Virus record (IMG/VR): IMGVR_UViG_3300025620_000004
Span: 1 to 64,000 of that record
Direction: 5' to 3' (one strand)
Source of the DNA: a virus
Length of the DNA: 64,000 nt
The stretch's first letter is position 1, and each line of letters starts with the position of its first letter. Shown here one piece after another: positions 31,201 to 45,241 of this stretch. Made by a program: the position numbers and the translations under genes. The notes below the pieces were generated by a model. That model searched no databases, was not told the DNA's origin, and was given only the letters and a program-made list of their open reading frames with translations.

Positions 31201-32735
31201 AGAACGGTAATGTAACTATGCGGTCTTATCAGCTTACTGATACTGCAGGCGCTATTGTATTTGACTCAGAAAACTTATTAGGTGGACCCGTACTAGCTCA
31301 GATTCAGAACTTGGTAGGGAATTTTACAGATAGTGTTACTACCTCTATTCACGCTTCCGGTCATATCAAAGTAGAACTAGGGGCTGCTCAAAACGTACAA
31401 ATTGGTTATGAAGTACCTCTAGGAAATCCCTATGTGAGTGACGTATCTACAAGTGTAGCTGACGTTATGAATGCGTTACCTTCAGCCATTAAAGTAAATG
31501 TTGAGTACTCTACTAATAATGGAGCATCTTGGAGTTTATTTGGTGCTCAAACTTTTAGTAGACTATCTAGTACAGACGCCAATGCTACTACAAGCGCCTC
31601 TCAGTATCTTGTTCATGGAGATTCTTATGATGCTCGCTCGGGCGGTACCAGATACGTAGCACATATTGTTAGTAATAAAGGAGCAGTATCTGCAACAGGC
31701 GGCTTAAAAGGCACTATAACAGGTTCAGGAAATTTATCAGCAGGTACTTACTTATTTAGAATAGATGATACTTCAGGTACTTCCGGTAATTCAGGAATTG
31801 TATGGACTGCCGGGTCTTATACTGGCTATGGCTATACCTTCCATAAGTATGGTAGCGGCTCCTCGAACGACCCTGCTCAGGCTTTTGCAAAAAATGCAGA
31901 TAGAGTGTACATTGTAGGTTCTAGTTCTTCGACAGGAGGTACAGCAGGTGCTGGTTATACTATTAATACAAATACTAGTCCACCTCACGTTAAAGATTCT
32001 ACTTTTAATATAGAGTATATGCCTATTACAGGAGGTACTTTTACAGGTGCGCTTAACTGGGGAACAGACACTGCCAGCATAAACTATGGTAACTACGGTA
32101 CGGGTACTGATGTTTTTAGCGTGAATCTAGGTAGCAACTCTAACGGGATAGTATTTGGACTGAATGGTAATGCCTTGCAATTGCAGGACAATCTTAGTGC
32201 ACATCATTCATTTGATAATAATGGAGACATTAGGTTCACAGGAGACTTAAAACAGCTCGACGATGGAGATACTAAGATATCTTTCACCAACGACAAAATA
32301 AGTTTTCTAGCCGGTAATGCTACAATGATGGAGTTAGTTGAAGTAAGCACAGGATATGATTACGTTAGACTAGGAAATACTGGTGATGGCAATGATACCA
32401 TTACGTTTAATCTATCAGCAGGCTCAGGTGTCTTTACAGGAAATGTAACAGCTTACTCAGATATAAGTCTTAAAGAAAATATAGAAGTTATTGATAATGC
32501 CGTAGATAAAGTCAGTAAACTAAGAGGTGTTACTTTTGACCGAATCGATAAAGAAGCCATTCCCAGACAAACGGGACTTATCGCTCAAGAACTAGAAAAA
32601 GTGTTGCCTGAAGCTGTGGAAACTAATGAGCTATCAGGTATAAAGTCGGTAGCTTATGGCAATGTCGTAGGTCTTTTAGTAGAAGCAATTAAAGAACTCA
32701 AAGAAGAAATCGAAGAGTTAAAAAGGAGTAAATAA
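25215..32735 (+). CDS. central tail fibre / host-specificity protein (lambda gpJ-like) with C-terminal S74 chaperone
   Basis: DVISEGPI.GL, YSNNPAWIYYDILTNNRYGLG, GGLEPRF, AFGCTSEGQA.R.GKW; FN3-like segment; AYSDISLKENI...GLIAQELEKVLPEAV. Confidence 0.92.
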   Translation: MRHGGNGGGGAGTGNSGNSNPGGTGTSSNNAATISTSASDAQLVSITDVISEGPILGLVDGSASVFLNNDRIHEVSAAGQRVSHGPMTITLTNGSTSATINNATSTTPLTANASLGAQLLIRGGNLTETSVTSSYDTRHKVSLSTSSSTFTQTMVTAVGQRARPDSLVPGRIKPTGSSTTPDGLPIEGFIWRRVSGTEALWRSGAFGDYNDFRLDDATYKLELDKIVNINAGGINGSSITLASAWDGISGTYSWDKISVVNMDISEVGSRASQRVQGGTVNFRPGTLNQTPMRSGGETAISRTIGEQMEVGTARFLVGSGNCGLTEAQLLEVDKLRWRITYPAGFKAISGKGNDKTTYIRYRISIAIKEEGDSDFGGFTIIRNPLTHSGNYTNSKTFESDLNLERFRPFTDFKLKLERLDTDDDPGFKSVGQTYKDWTNVTAGSLTGVTSILNEKLNHPYTAMADVSFSTKQYQGIPQRTYDLYGKMVRVPSNYVTREEATNGVASYNRNTSTGVITSNYQDWDGDFRDELVYSNNPAWIYYDILTNNRYGLGSFIKEVDIDKYALYRVARYCDGLVPDGKGGLEPRFTLNTYLTKGANSYKVLKDLATNFLGLLYYLDGQLYTSLDAPAAPVYTFNKTNVIDGTFSYESSSEKTRSNQIIVNWNDPTKDYKMEPLIVEDERNIVNTGRIISETAVAFGCTSEGQATRYGKWKLWTAANQKEIATFSASLEGAFVAPGDIINIQDADRYAVRLGGRVSNTGTLSTTTIPLDSTVLLNSGSTYTLSLVYPKPAAFTREAVTISGVSYEAGDLIHQAYVDGSLTVIDTKEKSVNAKVSASSGAEPLTLDFNANLRTETKDITSSQIGSSVTSITVTSAFTEAPTRESLWVLQETKTGLQVKGSKKEYKVLSISENSGNVYDITCIEHYDSKWTSVEEDFTTYIQGDLEPSLLSTDVVPPVENLIARSHGRDNGTAHETLLVSWDPPGAGQAYVRNSTGGRHNQTVSQEYEYLLGYIVEHNLPEYENPMRVGRDTTELLFSDLVPDDYTITVRTVNAIDNVSEAISVQTTITDRFQDAIPRFPLGLPYGGTSNVAIKTINSTSGDSDYGLFELAKSVYIFSPEQTNGFGINQTSTAASTYQQDVSGIAETAAVASSESGTFIDRHYYVSLNSAVATDNLTLLKYNKTPNHRVPYWYDAGNGSNTTGLTNLTGTISVSGSTVTGSGTSFTSELVVGALLQTTSTAAAIVTSVVSDTAVYIDRILPDGSGITAQTNNHRFDFDNETIIAKVYATDNGAANKVFSMEPYMSLDANVQAQQGVTRTLYYRATNNGAAGTINTTTGTFDDPATGAATGWQLANPGLQANGDIIYAITRIFTNDGLAPQEASWSTASIVARRQDGAAGNAAKVVSLRASKSVIEYAADGTTGSGQTITLTAESKNFDDGYFRFTADDGSFTTIDWVDGTTANTKTATYSIPTSYNADPITFTVQVKEGSSGSEEARDVLTIPSIKPGVDAIDALTVVMTNEAHAIPRASATATPDFTGSGNTIRVFEGTTELDHDNTGTAASHYKVVTTGSTNCTPGNLTGEGSNVLSATFDQITGITGNTALVKYTITGKRADGTAFSLVRFQSLTRTTDGAPGNPAVDEKTVIVYKKFAAGVSAPTAITFTSGNNATDQTHSNPTNELDGWTIAYPSISVEGDRVYSGQRTFTLTGGDSSWTFNGLVAEIKTGPRTATIQLHYSAAVTDGSTPAKPTTSNTHTFNFAASTFGTIKTGWQHGAPTYASGNSNKYYYSFATITESSFGGSQTITFGNTTQAIGFSGLVTFTSAGVLEDDQYSITPLTTHQDVSSFMEAADVADHIGGANTSTIDGGKINAGSSVTVGTSGTNRAGLSGVGTAETDIRVFSGAAFANRATAPFRVTQAGEFRSSTGIIGGFTFGDDAMTTSQDTILRLGSDLGNNIDQSVTLSSRSEDDYVIYAGHAPTDDDPVTTDAPPPFGVEKNGNVTMRSYQLTDTAGAIVFDSENLLGGPVLAQIQNLVGNFTDSVTTSIHASGHIKVELGAAQNVQIGYEVPLGNPYVSDVSTSVADVMNALPSAIKVNVEYSTNNGASWSLFGAQTFSRLSSTDANATTSASQYLVHGDSYDARSGGTRYVAHIVSNKGAVSATGGLKGTITGSGNLSAGTYLFRIDDTSGTSGNSGIVWTAGSYTGYGYTFHKYGSGSSNDPAQAFAKNADRVYIVGSSSSTGGTAGAGYTINTNTSPPHVKDSTFNIEYMPITGGTFTGALNWGTDTASINYGNYGTGTDVFSVNLGSNSNGIVFGLNGNALQLQDNLSAHHSFDNNGDIRFTGDLKQLDDGDTKISFTNDKISFLAGNATMMELVEVSTGYDYVRLGNTGDGNDTITFNLSAGSGVFTGNVTAYSDISLKENIEVIDNAVDKVSKLRGVTFDRIDKEAIPRQTGLIAQELEKVLPEAVETNELSGIKSVAYGNVVGLLVEAIKELKEEIEELKRSK

Positions 32736-33349
32736 TGGCACTACCAGCGGCAGGGAATAGTCTATCTTTAAATCAAATTCATATAGAGGCAGGAGGTACT
32801 TCTGGTACCACTTGCTCTTTAAATGATAGCGACATTAGAGGGCTAACACCCGGGTCAGGTTATACTATCCCTACAGGAGATCAAACTGCTATTGATATTG
32901 GTGATTTTTTCGAGGCATCTTCAACTAATCCTAATATACATACTTTAACAGCAGGTTTCCAACAAACTACATTTAGCTCCAGGTCGGGAGGCTCTTCTAC
33001 ATATACAAACTACTACGGATATATGCCTTTTTATGGCAGCCCGACTTCGCAGAACGGTACTTTAAGTCCTACTACTTTTGCTCTGAAAAGCGGAGCGACT
33101 ATTTTAGGAATCTACAAAAACACTAGCACCGCCAGCACGAGCCTTAATAATAAGTTATTTTTAAGAGTAAATGGTGCACAAGCAAATAGTGGATGGACTT
33201 CTATGAATATTGTTCAGGGTTCTTTAAATCTGACTTTTTATAGGACTTCTGCCACCCATGTGTCTGGTGCTAGTTACTCATATTGGCAGTGGTCTACTAC
33301 CGCCTCCCTATTCCCCAACGGAACAAGTTCGACAATTACTTTTGCATAG
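32735..33349 (+). CDS. putative receptor-binding adhesin at fibre tip
   Basis: MALPAAG.SLSLNQIHIEAG...SLND.DIRGL...I.IGDFF N-terminal module typical after S74-type fibres; aromatic/Ser/Gly-rich C-domain. Confidence 0.6.
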   Translation: MALPAAGNSLSLNQIHIEAGGTSGTTCSLNDSDIRGLTPGSGYTIPTGDQTAIDIGDFFEASSTNPNIHTLTAGFQQTTFSSRSGGSSTYTNYYGYMPFYGSPTSQNGTLSPTTFALKSGATILGIYKNTSTASTSLNNKLFLRVNGAQANSGWTSMNIVQGSLNLTFYRTSATHVSGASYSYWQWSTTASLFPNGTSSTITFA

Positions 33350-33358
33350 GAAAATATA

Positions 33359-33598
33359 ATGATTGAATATACAACAAGAACAGAAGATTCTGTAGTCTTT
33401 GCTTGCTTCACACATGAAGGGTTAAACTTAGAAGTACCTATAACCGATATAGAAGAGGAGCAGGTACAAGCTTTTTTAGCTTTTACATTAGATGATATAA
33501 AGAATACTCTAGCACAAGACGAGTTTTTAGAAGATGAAGAAAATCAAGAAAAAGGATTTTGGTGGAATGACTACGAAAATAGAGTAGACTGGGAATAA
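33359..33598 (+). CDS. acidic hypothetical protein
   Basis: 79-aa ORF with AGGA RBS. Confidence 0.6.
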   Translation: MIEYTTRTEDSVVFACFTHEGLNLEVPITDIEEEQVQAFLAFTLDDIKNTLAQDEFLEDEENQEKGFWWNDYENRVDWE

Positions 33599-33616
33599 CC
33601 ATGAAAAAAATAATTC

Positions 33617-33645
33617 TTGACATAACACCCCAAGTTAGCTATAAT
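33617..33645 (+). promoter_or_regulatory. late-region sigma70 promoter (fibre operon)
   Basis: AAAAAAATAATTC-TTGACA-17-TATAAT. Confidence 0.85.
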
Positions 33646-33665
33646 TCTGTAATGGAGGAAATCAA

Positions 33666-34004
33666 ATGAGTGCAGCCCGCTACAACCTAGTTATTGACCA
33701 AGGTTCCGACTTTGCCATTAACTTTACTGTTAAAGACAACGGATCAGTTAAAAACCTGACAGGCTATTCTGCGCGTGCTCAAATGAGAACTTCAAAGACA
33801 GCTTCCTCAGTTGCGGCTACTTTTAATTGCGCTATTAATACTCCAGCAAACGGAACAATTACAATGTCTTTAGCAAATTCAGTGAGCAGCCCGTTAACCG
33901 CAGGTACTTACGTTTATGATTTAGAAATCTTCACCGCTAACAATGCCAGTGTAACTAGATTAATTCAAGGGTCTGTAGACCTCACTCAAGAGGTTACCCG
34001 ATAA
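33666..34004 (+). CDS. fibre collar/adaptor protein (BppU-N/LtfC-like Ig fold)
   Basis: NLVIDQGSDF, NLTGYSARAQMR, GTYVYDLEI, RLIQG.V. Confidence 0.7.
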   Translation: MSAARYNLVIDQGSDFAINFTVKDNGSVKNLTGYSARAQMRTSKTASSVAATFNCAINTPANGTITMSLANSVSSPLTAGTYVYDLEIFTANNASVTRLIQGSVDLTQEVTR

Positions 34005-34369
34005 TGGCAATTACAATTACCGCAACGCCTATACAGAACGGCATCGAAGTTACGGGTGGAAGTACAACTATTACCGCAGCAGGAGTAGCTATTGCAAATA
34101 CTAATGCAACAGCAATGGGTATTTCCAGTGTATCAGGTTTAAGTGCTACAAACGTGCAGACTGCTATTGAAGAACTTGCAGGTTCTACGTTCCAACAAGA
34201 CAACACACCAACGGGGTCTCAAGTCAATGAAGGGGACACATGGTACGATACAGATGATAATCAATATAAAATATATCGCGAGACAAGCACCGGAGTATAT
34301 CAGTGGGTACCTATAATGGTAGGTTCAGCCTCTGGAGATTCTGATACACTTGACGCAGGAGCCTTTTAA
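34004..34369 (+). CDS. small fibre adaptor protein
   Basis: GLSATNVQTAIEEL, EGDTWYDT...KIY...W, ends LDAGAF. Confidence 0.65.
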   Translation: MAITITATPIQNGIEVTGGSTTITAAGVAIANTNATAMGISSVSGLSATNVQTAIEELAGSTFQQDNTPTGSQVNEGDTWYDTDDNQYKIYRETSTGVYQWVPIMVGSASGDSDTLDAGAF

Positions 34370-34390
34370 GGCTAATCCCGGAGATCCTAA

Positions 34391-35419
34391 ATGGCTCAAA
34401 CAATTCAAATCAAGCGTAGTACTAGTACTACAACCCCCTCAAGCCTTACTGCAGGTGAATTAGCATATTCAGGTAAGTCAGACAGTAATAAACTATTTAT
34501 CGGACACCCCGACGGCACTACAGGTGTTGTTGCTATTGGTGGTCAATATTACACAGGCATTATTGATGGTGCCGCAAGTGCGAACACTGCAAGTAAATTA
34601 GTACTGCGAGACGGTTCAGGAAACTTCAGTGCTGGTACAATTACAGCTACTTTAACAGGTGATGTTACTGGTAACGCAGATACTGCCACAGCTCTTGCTT
34701 CAGGCAGAACGATTGCAATCACAGGGGACTTAGCGTATACTTCTCCTAGCTTTACAGGTGCTGGCAATGTTACCGCAGCAGGTACTCTTGCAACAGTAAA
34801 CTCAGACGTAGGATCTTATGGTACTGCAACGGCAATTCCTGCAATCACTGTAAATGCAAAAGGTCTTGTTACAGCGGTTAGTACTAATAGTATTTCTTCT
34901 AGTTTTACTCTAGCGGCAGACAGCGGCACCAACGATACTTTCAATAATGGTGAAACTTTAACACTTACAGGCGGAACAGGTGTTGCCACAACTGTTAGTA
35001 ACAATGCGGTTTCTTTTGCAATCGGACAGGCAGTTGCTACCACCTCTAATGTAACATTCAATAATGTTCAGGTAGACGGTACTCTAACTTCTGATGACAT
35101 TACTTCTACAAATATCTCGGTTGCTGGTAATGCTACAATTACGGGTAATCTTACAGTTGAAGGTACTACAACTACTGTTGATTCTACTACTGTTGCCATT
35201 GGTGATAACATCATGGTTCTTAACAAAGACGAAACAGGTACTCCTTCTGCAAATGCTGGTATCGAAGTTGAACGAGGAACTGCGACAAATGTATCGCTTC
35301 TTTGGAACGAAGGCAACGATAACTGGACTGTGAGCAATGGAAGTGCAACTTCCGTAATATTAACTGCCGCAAACTTTGGAAGCACTTATACAGGTGCAAT
35401 TGACGGCGGTACATTCTAA
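34391..35419 (+). CDS. tail fibre shaft protein (Mtd_N-like N-terminus)
   Basis: IQIKRS...P..L.AGELA; RDGSGNFSAG, TVNAKGLVTA, GNLTVEGTTT, AGIEVERG fibre motifs; ends IDGGTF. Confidence 0.8.
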   Translation: MAQTIQIKRSTSTTTPSSLTAGELAYSGKSDSNKLFIGHPDGTTGVVAIGGQYYTGIIDGAASANTASKLVLRDGSGNFSAGTITATLTGDVTGNADTATALASGRTIAITGDLAYTSPSFTGAGNVTAAGTLATVNSDVGSYGTATAIPAITVNAKGLVTAVSTNSISSSFTLAADSGTNDTFNNGETLTLTGGTGVATTVSNNAVSFAIGQAVATTSNVTFNNVQVDGTLTSDDITSTNISVAGNATITGNLTVEGTTTTVDSTTVAIGDNIMVLNKDETGTPSANAGIEVERGTATNVSLLWNEGNDNWTVSNGSATSVILTAANFGSTYTGAIDGGTF

Positions 35420-35467
35420 AATAAATTTTAATCTCTAGCGTATATACGCAAGTTATAGGAGAGCCAC

Positions 35468-35698
35468 ATGGCACAAACGATCAAATTAAAGCGCTCGTCT
35501 ACGGCGGGCTCTATTCCTACTCATTCACAACTAGAGTTAGGCGAAGTTGCTATCAATACTGCGGACGGTCGTATGTATATGAAAGACGGAGCTAACGCCA
35601 TTGTCTGGGTAAATAAAACTTCTGAAATTACAGGAACCACTCCGCAAGCATCGGACGGAACAAATAAGCCCGTAGGGTATGTTTGGTATGTAGTCTAA
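35468..35698 (+). CDS. small fibre adaptor (Mtd_N-like)
   Basis: IKLKRSS..GSIP....L..GEVAINTADGRMYMK; AGGAG RBS. Confidence 0.75.
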   Translation: MAQTIKLKRSSTAGSIPTHSQLELGEVAINTADGRMYMKDGANAIVWVNKTSEITGTTPQASDGTNKPVGYVWYVV

Positions 35699-35699
35699 G

Positions 35700-38600
35700 A
35701 TGACTATTAAGGTTTGGAATGGTTCCGCAGTACAAGAACCAGAGCAAATAGTAGTTAAAGCTGCAGCGGGAACGTTGCGGTTTGTAAACTATGTCGTACA
35801 GAAAGTTACAGATGGAAGTCTGAATACTGTATGGAATGCTATTTACAATACAAGCCGATCTACCGATACCTCTAGAAGCTCTACAACTACTTTTACGACT
35901 ACCTTTGACACTAGTGCAAGTACCAATATTAATACTACTACGGGATTTGATACAATCAGAGGTACTACCAGAAGCACAAGTAGCACGTTTACTACTGCGT
36001 ATGATACTTCTGCTGTTACTTCCAAGTCTACTACTACCGCTTACAGTACCACATTCGGTACAACTGCAAGTACAACCACTACTTATGTGAGTAACTTCGA
36101 TACAACTCGTGGTACTACAGTAAATACCACTACCTCTTTCAATACTACTTTTGCTACATCGAAAGATACTACTACTGCGTTTACCACTACTTTTGACACT
36201 GCTACTAGTGTGGCTACTACTACTGCGTTTACAACAACGTTTGAGACTACTCGCGCCACTGCGGTAGATACCACCACTACATTTACTACGACTTTCGCAA
36301 CTAGTAAAACAACTAATACAGTATTTACTACTACGTTTAATACTACTACTACTCGTACTACCACTACTGCGTATACGACTACTTTCAACACGAGTAAAAC
36401 TACTCTACGAAATACCACGACCACGTACACTACTAGCTTTAATACTACAAAAAGCACTGTTACTACGTTCAATACTGAATTTGCTACAGGTACGAGCAGA
36501 GCTACCACAACCACGTATACTACTACGTTTAACACTACTAGATCTACCACGATAGATACTACTACTGCTTATACTACGACTTTTAATACTACTCGATCTA
36601 CAACGATAGATACGACTACTACGTTTAATACTACGACTACTCGTAGTACTACGACTACGTATACAACTAATTTTAATACTTCAAGAGGTACTTCTAAGTC
36701 TACTACTGTAAACACTACTACGACTTTTGATACTTCTCGAAGCACTTCTAAATCTACAACTACTGTATTCAATACTCAGACTTCAAGAGGTACAGATAGA
36801 GCAACCACTACGACCTTTAATACTTCTCGAAGCACAAGCAGGGGCACCAGTAAGTCTACCACTACTACATTCCTAACAGGAACCTCACGTAGTACAACAA
36901 CAGCTTTTGTTACTCAAACAAGTAAGTCAACCTCCAGAGCAACAACGTCTGTATACGATACTAGTAGAGGTACTTCCCGAGTTACTAGTAAAGCCACTAC
37001 TACTGCTTTTGCTACGGGTACAAGCCGAAGCACTACTACAGCATATGCTACGTCGAGAGGCACAAGTCGTGCTACCAGTAGAGGTACTACTACAGTATTC
37101 GGAACAACTACAAGCCGAGGAACAACGACAGCCTTTAACACGACGACTACTTTTACTACAACTCGTGCCTCCAACACTGTATATGCCACAAGCAGAACTA
37201 CCGGTACTTCGAGAAGCACAACAACAGCTTTTGCTACCGCTACAAGTCGAAGCACTGGAGAAAGTAGAAGCACAACTACTACGTTTAATACAAGTAGAGG
37301 TACAACTTTTGGTACCACTACTGTATTTGTTACAGCTACTTCAAGAGGTACTGGCGAAAGTAGGGGTACTACTACGAGTCGAGGAACGGCTACGAGTCGT
37401 ACAACATCTTTCAATACCACTACTTCTTTTGGTACTACGACTGCGTATACTACTACAAGTTCATTTACTACAACTTTTGCTACCACGACTGCATACACAA
37501 CTACAACTGCATTTACCACAACTTTTAGTACCACGACTGCGTATACAACTACAACCTCGTTTACGACTGCATTCGGCACTACTACAGCGTACACAACTAC
37601 TACTTCGTATACAACTACTACTACATTTGGTACTACTACTGCATATACTACATACTATACAGCTAGTACGAGCAGAGGTACTACTACGTCTCGTGGTACG
37701 TCTCGTGGTACGTCTCGTGGTACAAGCCGAAGCACTACTACTGCCTTTGTGGGGCAGACTGCCTATGCTAGTTTAGTAGTACGAACTACTACGTTTACTA
37801 CGTATTATAATACCGCGTATACTACATACTACTATTCTCGTAGCCATACAAGCAGGGGTACTTTAAGAGCAACCAGTAGAAGCACAAGTAGAACTACCAC
37901 ATTCTATCAAGATGTAAGACATGATACGGCAAAAAGTCGAGGAACAACCACTGCTTTCACTACTAGTTATACTACCTACTGGAGTACAACTTTTGGTACT
38001 ACCACTACTTTCGGTACTGCGAAAAGTCGCGCAACAAGCCGTAGTACTGCTACAAGTAGAGGTACAGGAGAATCTCGAGGAACAGGGGAGTCCAGGAGCA
38101 CTACTACTTCTCGCGGTACAAATAGAGCAACAGCAGAATCTAGAGGCACTGCTACAAGCAGAGGCACTTCTAGAGCAACAGCAGAATCCAGAAGTACTGC
38201 TACAAGCAGAGGCACTTCTAGAGGTACAGGAGAGTCCAGAAGCACTACTACAAGCAGGGCAACAGGAACTAGTCGTACAACTACATTTACTACAACTACT
38301 TCTTTCGGTACAACCACAGCGTATACAACAACTACTACGTTTGGCACTGCCACAAGTAGAGGTACTACTACGAGTCGTACTACTACGTTCGGAACCAATA
38401 GAAGTACAACTACAGCGTATACAACAACTACTACGTTTAATACAATTACCAGTAAAGCTACTACTACTGCTTTTGGTACGACTACTACTTTTGACACAAG
38501 TAAGAGTACTACCACAACCTATAACACAAATAGGGCAACAGGAACGAGTCGAGGTACTACTACTGCTTTTGTTACAGCAACGAGTAAAAGTACAACCACA

Positions 38601-39926
38601 GCGTATACTACATCTTTTACTACTACTTTCGGTACTAGTAAAAGCACTACTACTTCGTTTAATACTACAACTACTCGTAGTACAACGACTACGTATACCA
38701 CTGCGTTTTCTACAACTTTTAATACGTCGTTAAGTACAACTACTACATTTACTACTACATTTGGCACTACGACTACTAGGGCTACAACGACTGCGTTTAA
38801 TACTAATACTACGCTTGCTACTACAACTGCTTATACTACTACGTTTACTACTACTTTTGCAACAAGTAAAAGTACTACTACCGCGTTTACTACTACTTTT
38901 GCGACAGCTACAAGTAAAAGTACAACTACTACTTTCAATACTACGTTCGCTACAAGCAAAAGTACTGGCTGTGTGTATACTACTGCATATACTACTACAT
39001 TTGGTACCAGTAATATAACATCAAAGGCAACTACGACAGCATTCCTAACCGCTACTAGTAAAACAACTACTAGTACGTATACTACTACTTTTGCCACAAG
39101 TAAAGGTACTTCGAAAACGACCACTAGTACATATACTACTATATTTAATACTAGTAATGTAACCGATAAATCAACTACTACGGCGTTTAATACTACTACA
39201 TCTCGTTCTACTACGAAAGACACTACTACTACGTTTATAACTAGTAGAACTACTACGAATGAAACTGGTTGCACCTATACTACTACTTTCGCAACGAGCC
39301 GAGGTACAACTAAAGACACAACTACTGCATTCTCTACTGCCACATCCAGAACTACTAATTTTGATACTACAACTGTATTTGATAGTTCCAGAAGTACAAC
39401 AAAGAGCACTAGTAGCCAGTATACCACTGTCTTTAATACTAACCGAGGCACTAGCAAGTCCACTACCTCTGTATTTAATACTGCAACCAGTAGAGGCACT
39501 GATCATCAGACAAGCACCGTATATGATACAACAGGAGGAACTTCTAGAGTTACTTCGAGTGCATTTGTTACTGTATTTAATACGACTGTAACTACGGATA
39601 AAAGTACCACTACAGCATTCGATACCTCCAGAGCCACTACTAAAAGCACTACCAGTAATTATACTACTACGTTTGCTACTTCTAAGAGCACGCAAGTTAC
39701 TACAACTACTGCATTCTCTACAGTTTATAATACTACTCGTAGTACTACTACTACGCGTACAACTACTTTTGAAACGAGCAAATCGACTTCAAGAGCTACC
39801 ACTACTACGTTCGGAACAAACACAGTTGTTTATGAGCGTATCACAAGTACAGGAGTTGAGACCGAGGTTTCATCTTCTTCTGCACACAACTCACGATATT
39901 GGGATGGATCACAATGGACGGAATAA
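35700..39926 (+). CDS. 1408-aa Thr-rich self-complementary fibre protein (predicted giant beta-hairpin)
   Basis: Uninterrupted ORF; 4/6-residue units ending in F/Y/W or R/K, mirrored about residue 715; W(N/D)GS motifs near both termini. Confidence 0.9.
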   Translation: MTIKVWNGSAVQEPEQIVVKAAAGTLRFVNYVVQKVTDGSLNTVWNAIYNTSRSTDTSRSSTTTFTTTFDTSASTNINTTTGFDTIRGTTRSTSSTFTTAYDTSAVTSKSTTTAYSTTFGTTASTTTTYVSNFDTTRGTTVNTTTSFNTTFATSKDTTTAFTTTFDTATSVATTTAFTTTFETTRATAVDTTTTFTTTFATSKTTNTVFTTTFNTTTTRTTTTAYTTTFNTSKTTLRNTTTTYTTSFNTTKSTVTTFNTEFATGTSRATTTTYTTTFNTTRSTTIDTTTAYTTTFNTTRSTTIDTTTTFNTTTTRSTTTTYTTNFNTSRGTSKSTTVNTTTTFDTSRSTSKSTTTVFNTQTSRGTDRATTTTFNTSRSTSRGTSKSTTTTFLTGTSRSTTTAFVTQTSKSTSRATTSVYDTSRGTSRVTSKATTTAFATGTSRSTTTAYATSRGTSRATSRGTTTVFGTTTSRGTTTAFNTTTTFTTTRASNTVYATSRTTGTSRSTTTAFATATSRSTGESRSTTTTFNTSRGTTFGTTTVFVTATSRGTGESRGTTTSRGTATSRTTSFNTTTSFGTTTAYTTTSSFTTTFATTTAYTTTTAFTTTFSTTTAYTTTTSFTTAFGTTTAYTTTTSYTTTTTFGTTTAYTTYYTASTSRGTTTSRGTSRGTSRGTSRSTTTAFVGQTAYASLVVRTTTFTTYYNTAYTTYYYSRSHTSRGTLRATSRSTSRTTTFYQDVRHDTAKSRGTTTAFTTSYTTYWSTTFGTTTTFGTAKSRATSRSTATSRGTGESRGTGESRSTTTSRGTNRATAESRGTATSRGTSRATAESRSTATSRGTSRGTGESRSTTTSRATGTSRTTTFTTTTSFGTTTAYTTTTTFGTATSRGTTTSRTTTFGTNRSTTTAYTTTTTFNTITSKATTTAFGTTTTFDTSKSTTTTYNTNRATGTSRGTTTAFVTATSKSTTTAYTTSFTTTFGTSKSTTTSFNTTTTRSTTTTYTTAFSTTFNTSLSTTTTFTTTFGTTTTRATTTAFNTNTTLATTTAYTTTFTTTFATSKSTTTAFTTTFATATSKSTTTTFNTTFATSKSTGCVYTTAYTTTFGTSNITSKATTTAFLTATSKTTTSTYTTTFATSKGTSKTTTSTYTTIFNTSNVTDKSTTTAFNTTTSRSTTKDTTTTFITSRTTTNETGCTYTTTFATSRGTTKDTTTAFSTATSRTTNFDTTTVFDSSRSTTKSTSSQYTTVFNTNRGTSKSTTSVFNTATSRGTDHQTSTVYDTTGGTSRVTSSAFVTVFNTTVTTDKSTTTAFDTSRATTKSTTSNYTTTFATSKSTQVTTTTAFSTVYNTTRSTTTTRTTTFETSKSTSRATTTTFGTNTVVYERITSTGVETEVSSSSAHNSRYWDGSQWTE

Positions 39927-40051
39927 CCCTCAAAGAATTAAACCACAAAATAGAAACAACTTTAGAAATAGTCATGGAGCACTTCGTAGAAATGGAAGAG
40001 CGAATGGAAGATTTAGAGACTCAGCTTGAGGAATTACAGGATGGGGCTTAA
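39914..40051 (+). CDS. 45-aa acidic coiled-coil protein (absent from ORF track)
   Basis: MDGITLKELNHKIETTLEIVMEHFVEMEERMEDLETQLEELQDGA; overlaps both neighbours by 11-13 nt. Confidence 0.7.
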   Translation: MDGITLKELNHKIETTLEIVMEHFVEMEERMEDLETQLEELQDGA

Positions 40052-40913
40052 AAGACTAGCAGATAAAGATGAGCTAGGAAATAAGGCAGCACACTTCTTT
40101 AAGTCTGGTAATATAATGCGTACAGACGAAAACGATGAAGTTACAAAACTGAAAGAGCTGCTTCCTGCCCGAGGAAACTGGGGAACACCTTTAGAATACG
40201 ATGTCTGGTACGATATTGCGGAAGAAGAAATTGCTGGGTATACGTACACCGATTGTTTTTCTAAATGTATAATGATACGTGTCGCGTCTTACGAGAAAGC
40301 AAATCGTACAATGAGACTAGCAGCCAAAGAGCCTATAAGCGAAGAAGGTTTAGCTATTTTTAACGAACTCCGTGATAATAGTCACGATAAGTATAAACTT
40401 AGCAAAAGAAAACAAAAGCAGCATAAGTTTGTAATCTTTCTCCCAGGTACTAATATCATAGACAAAGTTTTAAATTACGATAAAGCTAAAAGGGCAGTGG
40501 CACAAGGTGCTGTACTAAAATGCCATCCTTTAACAGCTCCCGGAATGGTAGCATATCTCAAATCAGAGTTTGGTAGAGAGAATGTTATAGACAAGAAACT
40601 GTCTGGCCATAAACTTCTGGATGAGGCTGATATTGTAGGTTGTTGTAGCAACTCTGAAATGGGCTTGCTTGCAATTGCGAAAGGGAAAACAGTATACACT
40701 TTTGACTCAAAACCTGATTTACAGACTACTTACGGAGCAATCTACAGAGCAATCTGGGGTAAGGATGATATGCCTAGCGTGAATAGATTTAAGAGATTAC
40801 TTTCCTCAAAGTATTCCGGTATCATTCCTTACTTTATAGACAACCCGCAAGAAAGAATAAACTATTATTTTAATTTTTGGAAAGCAAACCCCCATGCAAT
40901 ACCTCGTAATTGA
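40041..40913 (+). CDS. GT-B glycosyltransferase-like protein (KpsS/KpsC capsule-synthesis-like)
   Basis: VLKCHP, SGHKLLDEADIVGCCSNSEMGLLAIAKGKTV resembling KxHP and LL..A..V...NSxxGxxA...GK.V of that family. Confidence 0.6.
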   Translation: MGLKRLADKDELGNKAAHFFKSGNIMRTDENDEVTKLKELLPARGNWGTPLEYDVWYDIAEEEIAGYTYTDCFSKCIMIRVASYEKANRTMRLAAKEPISEEGLAIFNELRDNSHDKYKLSKRKQKQHKFVIFLPGTNIIDKVLNYDKAKRAVAQGAVLKCHPLTAPGMVAYLKSEFGRENVIDKKLSGHKLLDEADIVGCCSNSEMGLLAIAKGKTVYTFDSKPDLQTTYGAIYRAIWGKDDMPSVNRFKRLLSSKYSGIIPYFIDNPQERINYYFNFWKANPHAIPRN

Positions 40914-41601
40914 AAATGAGTTTACAGCCCTTACTGTAAACTCTATAAAACAAAACATGCCTGATGCAAAATACGTGACTGCCCCTATGGGAGAGGGCAG
41001 GATTCAGACAGCTTTAAAACTGTGCACAGAGCCTACTATGGTAGTTACAGGCGGTATTATACTCAATATAAAAGAAGGAGATTTACCAGACCCTAAAGTG
41101 CTGGAAACTAAACACTTGGCAATGAGTAGAGAAGCAGTTTTTGCAGATCACCCTAGATGGAACCGGAACTATGAACTCATAAAAAGTCGTTTGCATGACG
41201 GAGTTGTGGATATGTCTATTTTTATTATTAACCCTGTAAAATGGAAAAAGATACCTAAAAAAGATATTAATTTTTTACTTGGAAAAAAGATATTGTATAT
41301 GCCAAGATATATGAATCATAGAGATGATCCAACACTAGGAACTTGTATGGGTGGAAAAGATATACTGGCATATGCGTCTTTGGGAGAGGACGCCTCTGTG
41401 CATAACTATCTTACTCACCTATACTCAGGAAAAGCTAGTGTAAGAGAGACGTTTGGATGTTGTTTTGATAAGCTACTACCCTATACGGAAGGTTTAGACG
41501 AAAGAGAAAAAGAGATAGTAGAAAAACTAGGTAATCTTACAAAGGTAAGGGTAGGAAAGTTAAGGCAGATGATGATAGACAGAAAAAAAGCCCCTGATTA
41601 A
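40894..41601 (+). CDS. GT-A/GT8-like glycosyltransferase-like protein (degenerate)
   Basis: TVNSIKQNMP, MSIFIINPVKWK (cf. NxGV..INL.KW), LYMPRYMN, SVHNY; no clear DxD. Confidence 0.45.
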   Translation: MQYLVIENEFTALTVNSIKQNMPDAKYVTAPMGEGRIQTALKLCTEPTMVVTGGIILNIKEGDLPDPKVLETKHLAMSREAVFADHPRWNRNYELIKSRLHDGVVDMSIFIINPVKWKKIPKKDINFLLGKKILYMPRYMNHRDDPTLGTCMGGKDILAYASLGEDASVHNYLTHLYSGKASVRETFGCCFDKLLPYTEGLDEREKEIVEKLGNLTKVRVGKLRQMMIDRKKAPD

Positions 41602-41613
41602 AGGGGCTTTCTT
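41588..41613. terminator. bidirectional terminator between converging late and early blocks
   Basis: AAAGCCCCT-GATTA-AGGGGCTTT with flanking A- and T-tracts. Confidence 0.8.
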
Positions 41614-41615
41614 CG

Positions 41616-42092
41616 TTATGGATGTACTGGAAAAGTAATCTGTGCTTGTAGCATTTCTGCTATGCTTTCCACCTGCTCTTCCGTTGCCCAGACAATACCT
41701 AAATTGAACTGAATAACTCCAGGTTTGATACCTGCTTTAGTACACATATTCTCAAAAGCTAAGGCATACTTGCACACTGCCTCTGGAAACTCGTCAACTA
41801 GATTAATTTCTTCTATATTGACTCTTATGTCCATTAGACCTTCTCTTTTGAAAGTCTGTATTTCTGGACAATCTTCGTTAATATACAGTGCATCTTTCTT
41901 TGCATCTGCTCTATTAAACTCAGAGTTACCAAAGTTAGGGAAAGATAGTGAAATGTCTGGAAACCAGATATTACTACCAAAACTCTCTACTCTATCATTT
42001 TGCTCCACGTTATTTCTGGCAAGATCATCAAGCATACCTAAGTAGCTTAACTCACTACCAAAACGAGGGTCTTGTTCTTGTTGTTCACTCAT
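41616..42092 (-). CDS. hypothetical protein
   Basis: 158-aa acidic ORF with AAGGA RBS after nrdJ. Confidence 0.7.
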   Translation of the reverse strand: MSEQQEQDPRFGSELSYLGMLDDLARNNVEQNDRVESFGSNIWFPDISLSFPNFGNSEFNRADAKKDALYINEDCPEIQTFKREGLMDIRVNIEEINLVDEFPEAVCKYALAFENMCTKAGIKPGVIQFNLGIVWATEEQVESIAEMLQAQITFPVHP

Positions 42093-42103
42093 TTTTATAT
42101 TCC

Positions 42104-43984
42104 TTATACGATCTCACAAGCACCGCCAACACAGGCGAGTTCTTGAGATCCAGTTGTGTTATCTTCTTTCTCAAACTGAGCTAAATCTTCCCAGTTTACA
42201 TTTTGTGGCATAGCCGCCACAAGCTTTTGGTACTCTTCTTCATTTATATCTTCGTATGGAGCTTGCTGATAAGTGTGATCACTTGTCGGAAGCAAACTAA
42301 TACCAGAACATAGATCAAAATTATCCCAAATCCACTGTGATACTTGCAAGTATTCACTATCAGTATAGTATACAGTCACACTCGGTTTGTGCTCACACCA
42401 GTGATTCTGATAAGCTTTCCATAACCTTAGCTGATGCATTGCACCTACGTCTCGTACACAAGTACTTGCTTCTGGAGACTTAACAGGAAAGCTAAAGACT
42501 ACAGAAGTAGGAGACATTACATCTTGTTCCATGGGAAACCCTGCTTGTTCCATATAGAGAGCAAGTGGGTCTTTTTTGTCTGAACGTACTCTCCGAATGT
42601 AATGCTTAGAGAAGCGAGGATGTATACCGGAAGCACTATCAACAAGCTGAGACACAGTACCAGATGGCTTAACACACGTAATAGCGACAGACTGATTAAC
42701 ACCAAGCCTTTCAGCCCATTCTTTATTTGTTTCAATACTAACATCTCTCATCTCCTCTAGCCATTCTGGCAGTATGTCTGAGTCAGGGTTTCCTAGGACT
42801 GCATGATCCATGATACCTGTTAGACTTACTCCCAACAATGCTTCTTCTTCAGTGTTACGCTTCCAACGCACTCGCAGATATCTAAAGTCTGTTAAAGTAG
42901 ACTGTAGTGTACCAATGATTGTTGCTTTGCGTACTTTTTCTTTTAATGTTTCTAACGTGTCGTCTGCTCGTACAACTACTTCTGACAAGTTACAAAACTC
43001 GTTGCTTCGTAGAATAATCTCGGAACAAGGGTTAGTACCAAAATCATGCTCAGGGTCACGACGACCATTACGACCTGCAATTTTCTGTGCCGCTACGCGA
43101 CTGAACAACCCACGCTCACCAGATTTAGACTCATATAGATTCTTCATCTCGGTCAAGAACGCTTCGAAGTCAGGCTTTTCTGTATATGCTACAGAATTGT
43201 TTGCAAGCCTACGCTGGCCTTGGTCAATCCACCACTGACCTGATTTAGCTTTTGACATACGCTGATCTGAAAGATTAGAAAGACTAATCAAAGCTGACCT
43301 ACGAACGCCACCAACTACTACAATATCAGCAATCTTACAGCAGACATCATGACACTCAATACTTGTAAGTTTACGTCCCTTTGCTTTCTGGAATATTTCT
43401 ACACAGAAACGGAACAAGTCTTGCAAAGGCTCTGGGCCACTTGCTCTACCACCAAAAGTTTTAAGTCTAGCACCTGCTGGACGTACTCGGCTCATATCCC
43501 ACTGAGGTAATTTACCTGCATAAAGCATGGCAATCAACTCACGAAAGGCACTCGCCCATCCTAGCTTACTATCGCTTACTACGATTGTAGAACTTGTTTT
43601 GTGGAATGTTTCTGCTACTTCTGGTAGCTTATTGATGAAGTTACGTTCTACACTAAAGCCTACGCCTGTGCCACACATCAATACATACATCAGCTCGTCA
43701 AAAGCTCGTGGATGGTCGATATGCAAATAGCTACAGTTAAAGCCTGCTACGTTATCACGTTTCAACGCTTCACCTGCTGTCATCATACAACGCATAGAAG
43801 GCATAACTTCTAAAGCATTAATGGCATTCCAGATTTCTTGACCACTTTCGTCGTCTAACTGTTCTCTTTCTTTAAAGAAATCAACATAGCGACTACAGGT
43901 TTCATCCCATGTTTCTCTGCGGCCTTCGTCCTCTAGCCATCGTGCGTATCTGCTTTTATGAATAAAACTTTGATACTGATCCAT
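42104..43984 (-). CDS. nrdJ: class II (B12-dependent) ribonucleotide reductase, monomeric RTPR-type
   Basis: FNCSY, GTGVGFS, VVVGGVRRSA, GTNPCSEI, CNLSE, TCVKPSGT, C-terminal CVGGAC; no beta-subunit gene nearby. Confidence 0.93.
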   Translation of the reverse strand: MDQYQSFIHKSRYARWLEDEGRRETWDETCSRYVDFFKEREQLDDESGQEIWNAINALEVMPSMRCMMTAGEALKRDNVAGFNCSYLHIDHPRAFDELMYVLMCGTGVGFSVERNFINKLPEVAETFHKTSSTIVVSDSKLGWASAFRELIAMLYAGKLPQWDMSRVRPAGARLKTFGGRASGPEPLQDLFRFCVEIFQKAKGRKLTSIECHDVCCKIADIVVVGGVRRSALISLSNLSDQRMSKAKSGQWWIDQGQRRLANNSVAYTEKPDFEAFLTEMKNLYESKSGERGLFSRVAAQKIAGRNGRRDPEHDFGTNPCSEIILRSNEFCNLSEVVVRADDTLETLKEKVRKATIIGTLQSTLTDFRYLRVRWKRNTEEEALLGVSLTGIMDHAVLGNPDSDILPEWLEEMRDVSIETNKEWAERLGVNQSVAITCVKPSGTVSQLVDSASGIHPRFSKHYIRRVRSDKKDPLALYMEQAGFPMEQDVMSPTSVVFSFPVKSPEASTCVRDVGAMHQLRLWKAYQNHWCEHKPSVTVYYTDSEYLQVSQWIWDNFDLCSGISLLPTSDHTYQQAPYEDINEEEYQKLVAAMPQNVNWEDLAQFEKEDNTTGSQELACVGGACEIV

Positions 43985-44805
43985 TATACCATTCTCTCCT
44001 CAATATTGGACACATTGTCCTTGCCTATTGCGTCATCGCAATATGTTACTAAATCCATCAACTCATAGTTCTTTAGCAGTACTTCTGCGTTTTCATTCAA
44101 TTCTTGTATGTACTTGTATTTGCCCTCGATGGGTATACAATCATAAATTGACATGGCATCGCCATACTGTTCTATAAGTTGTTGTGCTCTTTTCGGCCCT
44201 ATGCCGTTGATTCCTGGGACATTATCACCTTTATCTCCTGTTAAACACTTGAAAGAGATATACTCTTCTGGTTTAACTTCGTAGTGCTCATGCCAGTTAT
44301 CTATTGTTACCTCTTTTCGAGTAACGTAAGAAAATCTACTTACACCGTCCTGAATCAATAAGTCCCAGTCTCGGTCACTAGATACCAGCCAGATATTTTC
44401 TAATCCGTACTGTTTTCTTTGCTTTACAAGGTGGGCAGCAAGATCATCTGCCTCTACACCTTTGTAGCGAAGAACGTCATAGCTTTCTGACAGTAATTCT
44501 AGTGTTTCTTCGTACTCTTCAAAGAAGTCAATAAATGCTTGCTTCTCTGCTTCAGTTTGTTCAGCATACTTATCTTTTCGATTCTGCTTGTACTCTGGTA
44601 ATATCTCTTTTCTATAACTAGATGATCCCCAATCTGCGGTAATAATAACCTTACCACAATTGTAAGATGTTGCTAGAGATCTTACTGTTTCTACATACTG
44701 ATGTCTAAAATCTGTTCTGCCTTGATGCTTCCACCGAAAAGCTAAGTTTAGTGCATCTACTATGAGTACACCATCTTGGTTGCGTTCGTTAAAATTAAAA
44801 GCCAC
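43984..44805 (-). CDS. 5'-3' flap exonuclease (T5 D15-like)
   Basis: IVDALNLAFR, YKQNR, GVEADD, SSDRDW, GDKGDNVPGINGIGPKRA. Confidence 0.95.
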   Translation of the reverse strand: MAFNFNERNQDGVLIVDALNLAFRWKHQGRTDFRHQYVETVRSLATSYNCGKVIITADWGSSSYRKEILPEYKQNRKDKYAEQTEAEKQAFIDFFEEYEETLELLSESYDVLRYKGVEADDLAAHLVKQRKQYGLENIWLVSSDRDWDLLIQDGVSRFSYVTRKEVTIDNWHEHYEVKPEEYISFKCLTGDKGDNVPGINGIGPKRAQQLIEQYGDAMSIYDCIPIEGKYKYIQELNENAEVLLKNYELMDLVTYCDDAIGKDNVSNIEERMV

Positions 44806-45241
44806 CTATCCACTCCGTCTTTTCTGTTTTTAACCAATCATCTGCTAGTAGTACATAACAATTCAAAAAACGAATATACAGATACTCATCTGTGCCTTCT
44901 GGTTTGTTTTCTGTTACTACAAATACTTTAGATCGGTCATATTTAAAGAATAACAAGGGCTTTTGATCGCCACCTGCTGCTTGTATTACAATCTTCTTCC
45001 ACCATCTGATAATGTTATTTGTTTTCGGTTGTGTGAATATCTTATCAGTCAGCGGTGAGTCTTTATAATTTTTTACCTCTATACAATAATGATTTCTCTG
45101 ATTAGGGACATATAAGTCCCCTTTCAGATATTCAAGAGCACCCGAGGCAGGCACTCTCTCAAATTTCAGTCCGGTCGCTTCCCTCAGCATGTCCCTCACC
45201 AGGTACTCGCCTCTCGCTCCCTTCGCTCTCGAATCTACCAT
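44795..45241 (-). CDS. T5 D14-like PD-(D/E)xK endonuclease / Holliday junction resolvase
   Basis: SRAKGARGE, RVPASGA, KGDL, IEVKNY. Confidence 0.88.
   Translation of the reverse strand: MVDSRAKGARGEYLVRDMLREATGLKFERVPASGALEYLKGDLYVPNQRNHYCIEVKNYKDSPLTDKIFTQPKTNNIIRWWKKIVIQAAGGDQKPLLFFKYDRSKVFVVTENKPEGTDEYLYIRFLNCYVLLADDWLKTEKTEWIGGF

Follow-up and report, generated by a model that had tools for sequence, protein, structure and literature searches.

A threonine-rich phage protein with self-complementary halves, predicted to fold back on itself as a register-coded fibre

The 64,000-nucleotide window analysed in this work corresponds to positions 1-64,000 of the 72.9-kb uncultivated virus record IMGVR_UViG_3300025620_000004, and contains, at 35700..39926 on the plus strand (stop codon included), a gene encoding a threonine-rich protein of 1408 amino acids (aa). 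The two halves of this protein mirror each other residue by residue: aromatic residues of one half are found opposite arginines or lysines of the other, residue i being matched to residue 1430-i. The reading preferred here, to which a probability of roughly 0.7 may be assigned, is that the chain folds back on itself within a single molecule and builds the register-coded stalk of a predicted virion fibre, in which both termini would form the base and the tip varies. The same kind of mirror was detected in relatives of widely different length and in a group of T4-like baseplate proteins, and the coupling of the two arms operates, as the original prediction had proposed from the sequence alone, at the protein level.

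The mirror code

Complementarity was evaluated by counting aromatic (F, Y, W) against basic (R, K) residues on every anti-diagonal i+j=k of the protein. The test revealed a single peak at k=1430, formed by 112 aromatic:basic pairs, the runners-up (k=1382, 1478 and 1412) being limited to 45. Three types of control, each repeated 1000 times, stayed well below this value: at most 29 pairs were obtained by shuffling the full sequence and at most 35 by shuffling units of 4 or 6 residues, while shuffling the aromatic and basic labels on fixed positions gave a mean of 56 pairs (standard deviation 5.4) and a maximum of 75. A sharp single peak at this value of k had been predicted; the eight residue pairs quoted in the same prediction, and its axis at Ser715 (37842-37844), were also found to be correct when checked in the sequence. 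Secondary diagonals, located at +/-18 and +/-48, reflect the repeat periodicity.

The 693 mirrored pairs consist of 539 neutral:neutral, 112 aromatic:basic, 32 aromatic:other and 9 basic:other pairs. Like pairs are restricted to one aromatic:aromatic pair (F209:F1221), and no basic:basic pair is present; both counts agree with those of the original prediction. Among 270 units, 114 have a length of 4 and 111 a length of 6 residues. All paired residues had been expected to occupy odd-numbered positions, which is true for 242 of the 247 aromatic or basic residues of the two arms (120 of 122 in the left arm, 122 of 125 in the right one). The odd face contains 365 T, 93 F, 82 R, 38 Y and 32 K, and its pairs include 171 T:T, 63 F:R, 17 Y:R, 16 F:K and 14 Y:K. 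The even face is made up of small residues only (T, S, A, G, N, D, V), and its conservation reaches 60-63%, versus 84% for the odd face. Ser:Ser cross-strand pairs are avoided on the even face (4 versus 18.6 expected), and Asn:Ser and Ala:Ser pairs are enriched there; this avoidance may represent a second layer of complementarity, by size.

The register is constant along the protein, being 0 in all of twelve 60-residue blocks, and is also constant in all such blocks of four orthologues. If the arms are shifted by an even number of residues, whatever its size, 60 or more of the 123 basic residues face no aromatic residue, compared with 11 at the true register, and like:like pairs are also produced. 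Because any slip leaves so many basic residues unpaired, the pattern specifies one register, in agreement with the proposed role of the irregular pattern as a barcode.

Organization of the protein and of its gene

Threonine accounts for 43% of the protein (600 residues), followed by 184 Ser, 94 Phe, 88 Arg, 48 Tyr and 35 Lys. All parts described here are encoded on the plus strand. An N-terminal base segment (residues 1-54; 35700..35861) precedes the left, outgoing arm (residues 55-700; 35862..37799), which is paired at i+j=1430 with the right, returning arm, its complement (residues 730-1375; 37887..39824). The Tyr-rich tip and turn lie in between (residues 701-729; 37800..37886), where the pairs Y711:R719, Y707:R723 and Y703:R727 bring the pairing to within 4 residues of the axis. 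The C-terminal base segment (residues 1376-1408 plus stop codon; 39825..39926) ends in RYWDGSQWTE. When the arms are paired, residues 1-21 overhang the C-terminus. In the related loci L003 and L004, identity reaches 85-96% for the N-terminal and 85-88% for the C-terminal base segment, the arms being less conserved (72-77%) than the terminal segments. Four residues of the C-terminal base (W304, D305, G306 and W309, in the numbering of a 311-aa relative) are invariant in a 20-member family alignment. A Pfam scan of the whole protein revealed no family, apart from a sub-threshold match to DUF2510 (PF10708), limited to residues 1395-1408 (E 0.0013, 18.9 bits versus a cut-off of 24).

Comparison with four orthologues showed differences at 50-56% of third codon positions and at 14-22% of positions 1-2. 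Since third positions are far more diverged than the other two, the frame 35700..39926 is under purifying selection; ORFs (open reading frames) nested within 35700-39926 in other frames or on the opposite strand are by-products of the ACN-rich codon use. Seventeen rows of tandem repeats were reported in the gene by Tandem Repeats Finder. Two of them are arrays of 48-nucleotide (16-aa) units, one in an aromatic-rich block of the left arm (37419..37606, 3.9 copies) and one in an Arg-rich block of the right arm (38123..38261, 2.9 copies). The right array extends over approximately residues 808-854; the left one, when mirrored by its coordinates, falls on residues 794-856, so that the two are placed roughly opposite each other.

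Relatives keep equal and self-complementary arms

Direct searches are nearly blind to the 1408-aa protein, and relatives were for this reason located by using conserved neighbour genes and the N-terminal 54 residues as probes. An exhaustive HMMER search with residues 115-1314 detected only 4 proteins at E<=0.001. No match was obtained by megablast of the region 30000-45000 against phages, no family by searching PHROG with the 1408-aa protein, and no entry by a PDB sequence search at E<=1. The indirect procedure yielded 57 related loci, 37 with a complete ORF and 20 running off the contig. The complete ORFs encode 30 distinct proteins, falling into 19 length classes between 311 and 2084 aa.

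In 29 of the 30 proteins the best k exceeds the protein length by 20-23, which places the C-terminus opposite residue ~21. Because the best k tracks length in this way, the two arms, of 144 to 1032 residues, remain matched in size while protein length varies almost 7-fold. In 24 of the 30 proteins the peak exceeds the second best by a factor of 1.4 or more (e.g. 140 versus 63 at 1780 aa, and 126 versus 52 at 1956 aa); in four short members with a central insert (L022, L059, L057 and L055) it is no better than the second best. Among close orthologues every length difference falls within the tip-proximal residues 534-895 (1408-aa numbering), the zone in which the left 48-nucleotide array is also located. 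When left arms and reversed right arms were aligned independently, equal net insertions or deletions were obtained (+11/+11 and +56/+56), and a 14-residue insertion at arm position 514 is found on both sides.

The arms were also compared across lineages by means of a cross-pairing matrix, in which own arms complement 0.85-1.00 of the basic positions and arms of distant lineages 0.09-0.53. The arms co-evolve, since each left arm complements its own right arm and not those of distant lineages; the barcode has diverged several times, both arms changing together each time. Compensatory changes, expected in homologues by the original prediction, were detected: orthologues differ by full swaps of R:Y to Y:R at positions 489, 499 and 523.

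The tip is the most variable part of the protein among orthologues. Turn length differs by one residue between even and odd values of k; in L004, where k is odd, the marked residues of the returning arm switch parity accordingly. Both base segments are kept in the short members encoded at L022:848-1780 (311 aa), L057:4445-5488 (348 aa) and L055:568-2544 (659 aa), whose centre is a non-Thr, aromatic-rich, globular-looking segment mounted on a short stalk. This central segment is a candidate receptor-binding tip domain.

Among the 4 HMMER matches, P0015 was discarded as an unrelated Ser/Gln/Gly-rich repeat protein, and a mirror peak is lacking in both P0015 and P0016.

An independent replicate in DLP6-type baseplate wedge proteins

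Fourteen proteins show weak sequence matches (E 1e-13 to 6e-4), and a mirror signal was found in 12 of them, P0001 and P0011 having no dominant diagonal. The 12 positive proteins, which include one from the cultured Stenotrophomonas phage DLP6 (P0007), are T4-like 'baseplate wedge' proteins (PF23786) of ~1250-1416 aa, with a Thr-rich C-terminal half. Each of them has one dominant diagonal, composed of 24-41 complementary pairs, with 0-7 aromatic:aromatic and 0 basic:basic pairs; for P0007 the counts are 35, 2 and 0, at k=1949. A PDB sequence search with P0007 gave no match. Each arm has 298-376 residues, with the C-terminus facing residues 655-663 in every case. A baseplate-type domain at the N-terminus precedes the mirrored region, whose centre is a Pro/Gly-rich loop. 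Alignment columns agree with the mirror of each individual protein, and 6 column pairs exhibit aromatic-to-basic swaps, compared with 0-2 in twelve slid controls, again as expected from compensatory evolution. The 1408-aa protein lacks this N-terminal domain and is thus no member of PF23786: the Pfam scan gave no match to that family, and its 54-aa N-terminus bears no relation to the sequence MAIEKF... with which P0001 and P0007 begin.

In the region of residues ~556-712 of P0002-P0014, a short Thr-rich segment precedes a globular insert, and it is with this segment that the last ~50 residues form their best pairing. The implied length of the insert is 132-136 residues in 8 of 11 proteins, the local signals being weak (1-5 aromatic:basic pairs each). 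This arrangement suggests that a whole domain may be tolerated as a bulge in one arm. P0011 (1098 aa) contains a Thr/Ser/Lys-rich repeat, followed by a Leu/Val/Gln-rich tail over the C-terminal ~330 residues. This tail resembles a repeat of that type translated in a different frame, which would point to a frameshift or to an error of gene calling in the source.

Origin of the mirror pattern

Two explanations would make the protein pattern a secondary effect. According to one of them, the mirror derives from the nucleic acid, through an ancient inverted duplication or through selection for a hairpin in mRNA or DNA. Phe codons (TTY) are indeed partly complementary to Lys and Arg codons (AAR/AGR), and complementarity between codon positions 1 and 3 reaches 46-47% on the mirror diagonal versus ~39% elsewhere. 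This excess is, however, a consequence of the pairing itself, which places Phe/Tyr (T..T/C) opposite Arg/Lys (A..A/G). When synonymous codons were shuffled, 763.6 +/- 13.1 of 2076 positions were complementary, against 792 observed (z 2.2), a value reached by 1.5% of 2000 shuffles; the residual excess is small and far from that of an RNA hairpin. Overall DNA complementarity on the mirror diagonal is 38.1%, compared with a mean of 33.9% and a maximum of 38.4% on diagonals of the same frame class, and the earlier statement that the DNA is not an inverted repeat is thus confirmed. Tyr:Arg, Trp:Arg and Thr:Thr (ACN opposite ACN) pairs are not codon complements, the two opposed 48-nucleotide arrays are built from unrelated DNA units, and the protein code is kept between orthologues despite the divergence of third codon positions reported above. 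A nucleic-acid cause is disfavoured to the point of being scarcely credible, and the evidence supports a coupling acting on the protein.

Almost equally improbable is the other explanation, i.e. that the mirror arises statistically in a periodic repeat protein of low complexity, such as a beta-solenoid or a disordered Thr-rich linker, whose halves do not pair. The protein is highly repetitive and its periodicity generates the secondary diagonals; in addition, structure predictors give no fold for the Thr-rich stalk. Yet periodicity yields 45 pairs at most, and shuffles of units or labels never come near 112. A mere repeat protein would also have no reason to keep equal arms between 311 and 2084 aa, nor to carry barcodes which are self-complementary and private to each lineage.

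Predicted fold and arrangement of the chains

According to the proposed mechanism, the chain would run out for ~690 residues, turn at the Tyr-rich tip around Ser715 and return antiparallel, residue i coming to lie beside residue 1430-i. One face of the paired strands would bear Thr opposite Thr and aromatic residues (F/Y/W) opposite Arg/Lys, in an irregular order and with a 4/6 spacing that would permit a single register and let low-complexity, slip-prone Thr-rich strands zip correctly. The N-terminal ~54 and the C-terminal ~33 residues would meet at the base, where they presumably attach the fibre to the virion. Contact with the host would presumably be made by the tip, which is a bare turn in this protein and a small globular segment in short relatives. 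Fibre length would be tuned in evolution by gain or loss of repeat units on both arms. The conserved termini fit a joint anchoring base, as would be expected, and the earlier proposal of termini at the base and a specialised tip is consistent with the conservation pattern and with the central globular-looking segments of the short relatives. The best reading of the gene product, given the position of its gene in the tail-fibre module, is that of a structural fibre of a siphovirus-like phage.

From the sequence patterns we infer beta-strand geometry, cation-pi contacts, virion attachment, receptor binding and the oligomeric state. The original interpretation is in this respect partly supported: its core, i.e. 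self-pairing arms and a register barcode, agrees with the results, and the beta-ribbon, the cation-pi pairs and the length of ~200 nm are predictions. With the rise of ~0.33 nm per residue of a beta-strand, the 693 residues would correspond to a fibre of ~230 nm. Tail length follows, as a rule of thumb, 0.15 nm per residue of the tape measure; the fibre would therefore be longer than the tail, because the 1081-aa tape measure of this phage implies a tail of ~160 nm.

Several observations weigh against an intramolecular fold-back. Out of 154 mirrored pairs with an aromatic or basic residue, 42 are not aromatic:basic, about twice the number of exceptions originally estimated ('about 20'); roughly half of them sit in the terminal and tip segments. 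Insertions or deletions on one arm only had been indicated as a refuting sign, and length changes are matched in nearly all relatives, with 2 of the 30 proteins showing 32-34 unmatched residues. In one of these, L054 (1654 aa) looks like L053 (1620 aa) with 34 residues added to a single arm, and its inner register is shifted by +34 from about residue 563 (L054:4660-9621 versus L053:10001-14860); in the other, L052 (L052:134-5218), the register is shifted by -32 in several blocks. The inner arms of both still pair at the shifted register, and these differences are read, tentatively at the sequence level, as bulges of two units or as mis-assembly of 16-residue repeats. Full swaps among close orthologues number only 2-3, most changes being the loss of the basic partner alone, at 24 positions. 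A tblastn search of 50,697 phage records with the whole protein, residues 1-54 and the last 46 residues gave no match. The AlphaFold2 (AF2) model of residues 560-870, built from the single sequence, has a mean predicted local distance difference test score (pLDDT) of 34.4, and that of the 311-aa L022 protein, built on a 20-row alignment, of 34.8, with 64-69 for residues 1-50 only; neither model is informative about the stalk. A complex prediction for residues 423-522 together with 908-1007, performed without controls, scored 0.02 versus a mark of 0.34 and does not count on either side. No second register-specific diagonal, of the type that would mark strand pairing between chains, was found by scanning all anti-diagonals. 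Finally, we know of no precedent for an isolated two-stranded ribbon of hundreds of residues, and a higher-order assembly of hairpins is likely.

The mirror statistics are equally compatible with pairing within and between chains. In the latter case an antiparallel dimer, or a larger assembly, would form a symmetric rod with roughly double the length and with bases at its two ends. This arrangement is considered unlikely, and the intramolecular fold-back is favoured, for the centre of the protein is tip-like: it varies more than any other part, the length of its turn follows the parity of k, and in short relatives it is occupied by the globular-looking insert. In the DLP6-type proteins, whose centres are Pro/Gly-rich, a dimer would set two baseplate domains at opposite ends, and a rod with two equivalent anchoring ends would be hard to fit on a virion. 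A different possibility, which would refine the fold-back and not exclude it, is that three hairpins associate into a six-stranded antiparallel needle resembling the tip of T4 gp37, in which the even face, with its small residues, would be buried in the core and the Thr/aromatic/Arg face would point outwards. The even face has only small residues, as a narrow core needs, and the avoidance of Ser:Ser and enrichment of Asn:Ser and Ala:Ser suggest packing rules on it. Nevertheless, a fixed register between neighbouring hairpins would be expected to leave the second anti-diagonal which is missing, and the even face is the less conserved of the two. The gp37 needle binds metal through His-x-His motifs, a feature absent from the 1408-aa protein, which has only 4 His and no HxH motif. 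The needle is regarded as a tentative option, less likely than not.

Genomic context

The window displays a siphovirus-like gene order, including a large terminase, an ORF for protease and major head protein, a major tail protein, the tape measure (1081 aa) and minor tail proteins. The 659-aa ORF at 12469-14448 is a protease-capsid fusion, with PHROG matches to a major head protein and, over residues 9-258, to a head maturation protease. The hairpin gene is located after other tail genes and after a central tail fibre gene (25215-32735) encoding 2506 aa, J-like over residues ~272-1069, whose last ~130 residues match distal long-tail-fibre (gp37-type) PHROGs. Judging from these matches, the phage would carry a conventional fibre besides the hairpin fibre.

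Three genes immediately upstream, contained in 33666..35419 on the plus strand and encoding 112, 121 and 342 aa, are candidate adaptor or fibre proteins. Homologues of all three are found upstream of the hairpin gene in L023, L053, L015 and L016, only the 342-aa type in L067, and none in L024 and L022. For the 112-aa protein, the LtfC-like and BppU_N matches are sub-threshold; the 342-aa protein matches phrog_697, annotated as 'structural protein'. The proteins encoded at 34004-34369 and 34391-35419 end in similar motifs, LDAGAF and IDGGTF.

Downstream, two plus-strand genes follow. The first, listed as 295 aa (40026..40913), has a likely start at ATG 40041, the residue M6 being invariant in the alignment; the second encodes 235 aa (40894..41601). 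Homologues of the pair, 41-75% identical, directly follow the hairpin gene in all 7 loci with a downstream flank, and its position suggests a role in assembly or modification. In L005-L011 homologues of the pair lie beside packaging-type genes, in surroundings devoid of Thr-rich ORFs. A K-C-H-P motif is invariant in the 295-aa protein, for which an Atlas cluster with Capsule_synth in 13% of its members provides a weak lead. In its family the match to Capsule_synth (PF05159, KpsS/KpsC-type glycosyltransferases) is sub-threshold, with a best E of 0.023 (14.6 bits versus 20) and 3 of 11 members at E<=1. NCBIfam gave noise only for this protein and a PDB profile search no match; a profile search collected 167 relatives, of which the 120 listed are devoid of annotation or Pfam domains. 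It is possibly a sugar transferase or a fibre assembly factor. The 235-aa protein has no Pfam or NCBIfam match, one PDB profile match at chance level, and nothing above 0.88 in Atlas.

Further downstream, on the minus strand, the 626-aa protein encoded at 42104-43984 matches an adenosylcobalamin-dependent ribonucleoside-triphosphate reductase profile at 328.6 bits (cut-off 340), and is 96% identical in L015 and L016.

Comparison with known systems

The needle at the tip of the T4 long tail fibre, formed by gp37, was reportedly described by Bartual et al. in 2010. It shares with the 1408-aa protein, for which these features are predicted from the sequence, antiparallel strands going out and back and a binding region at the turn. 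According to one report (PMC9659904), the gp37 chain goes to the distal tip and back, three chains contributing six strands. The strands of the needle measure a few dozen residues within a trimer, compared with ~690 per arm here, the arms being 1-2 orders of magnitude longer per strand. The two proteins have no sequence relation, the 1408-aa protein having no match in Pfam or PHROG, and a residue-by-residue aromatic:basic code is not described for gp37 in the open-access literature searched.

The DLP6-type PF23786 proteins have in common with the 1408-aa protein the Thr-rich composition, the mirror code, the matched arms and the swaps. They differ by an N-terminal baseplate-type domain of ~560 residues, a globular insert of ~134 residues and arms of ~300-376 residues, whereas the 1408-aa protein has a base of only 54 N-terminal and 33 C-terminal residues and belongs to a siphovirus-like tail module. 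Baseplate genes are listed in the DLP6 genome paper (PMC5349666), whose portion considered here contains nothing on the Thr-rich region.

Two more distant comparisons are instructive. Designed beta-hairpin peptides of 12-16 residues are stabilised by one or two cross-strand aromatic-cation pairs. The pairing of an aromatic residue with Lys/Arg on the same face is shared, but the 1408-aa protein is natural and combines 112 pairs over ~690 positions. Nucleic-acid hairpins and coiled-coil heptads offer an analogy, as they too use a linear complementary code to fix partner and register; here, by contrast, the chemistry would be that of beta-strands, and a two-letter aromatic/basic code is written on a Thr background.

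A self-complementary fibre coded residue by residue was not found described in the open-access literature searched, within the portions of the sources covered (PMC10743442, PMC12750041, PMC9973310, PMC13252515). The words hairpin, threonine and antiparallel are absent from a tail-fibre structure atlas paper (PMC12143355).

Significance

If the structure is borne out, the protein would represent a categorically new architecture. It belongs with its relatives to a family that has its own base module. We lean, by a narrow measure, towards regarding it as a protein counterpart of base pairing, in which an aromatic:Arg/Lys code on a Thr:Thr ladder programs both partner and register, lineages have private, incompatible barcodes, and matched gains of repeats tune the length from tens to over 300 nm. 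A real fold-back would provide a principle of fibre construction unlike those of coiled coils, triple beta-helices or beta-spirals and collagen-like repeats: a single chain would recognise itself by a digital code of side chains, and would do so over a distance similar to, or above, the length of the phage tail. This would explain how low-complexity Thr-rich strands avoid mis-registration and aggregation, and would offer a simple evolutionary route to changes of fibre length, via matched gains of units.

For protein engineering, such a principle of architecture would supply a natural template for programmable, register-specific protein nanofibres, and the diverged barcodes a natural set of orthogonal codes for the design of register-specific beta-duplexes. 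The class is missed both by sequence search (4 HMMER matches) and by structure prediction (AF2 pLDDT ~35). If the interpretation is correct, the 57 loci with the base module, along with the T4-like baseplate versions, would show that uncultivated phages commonly possess a class of host-contact fibres which has until now escaped annotation.

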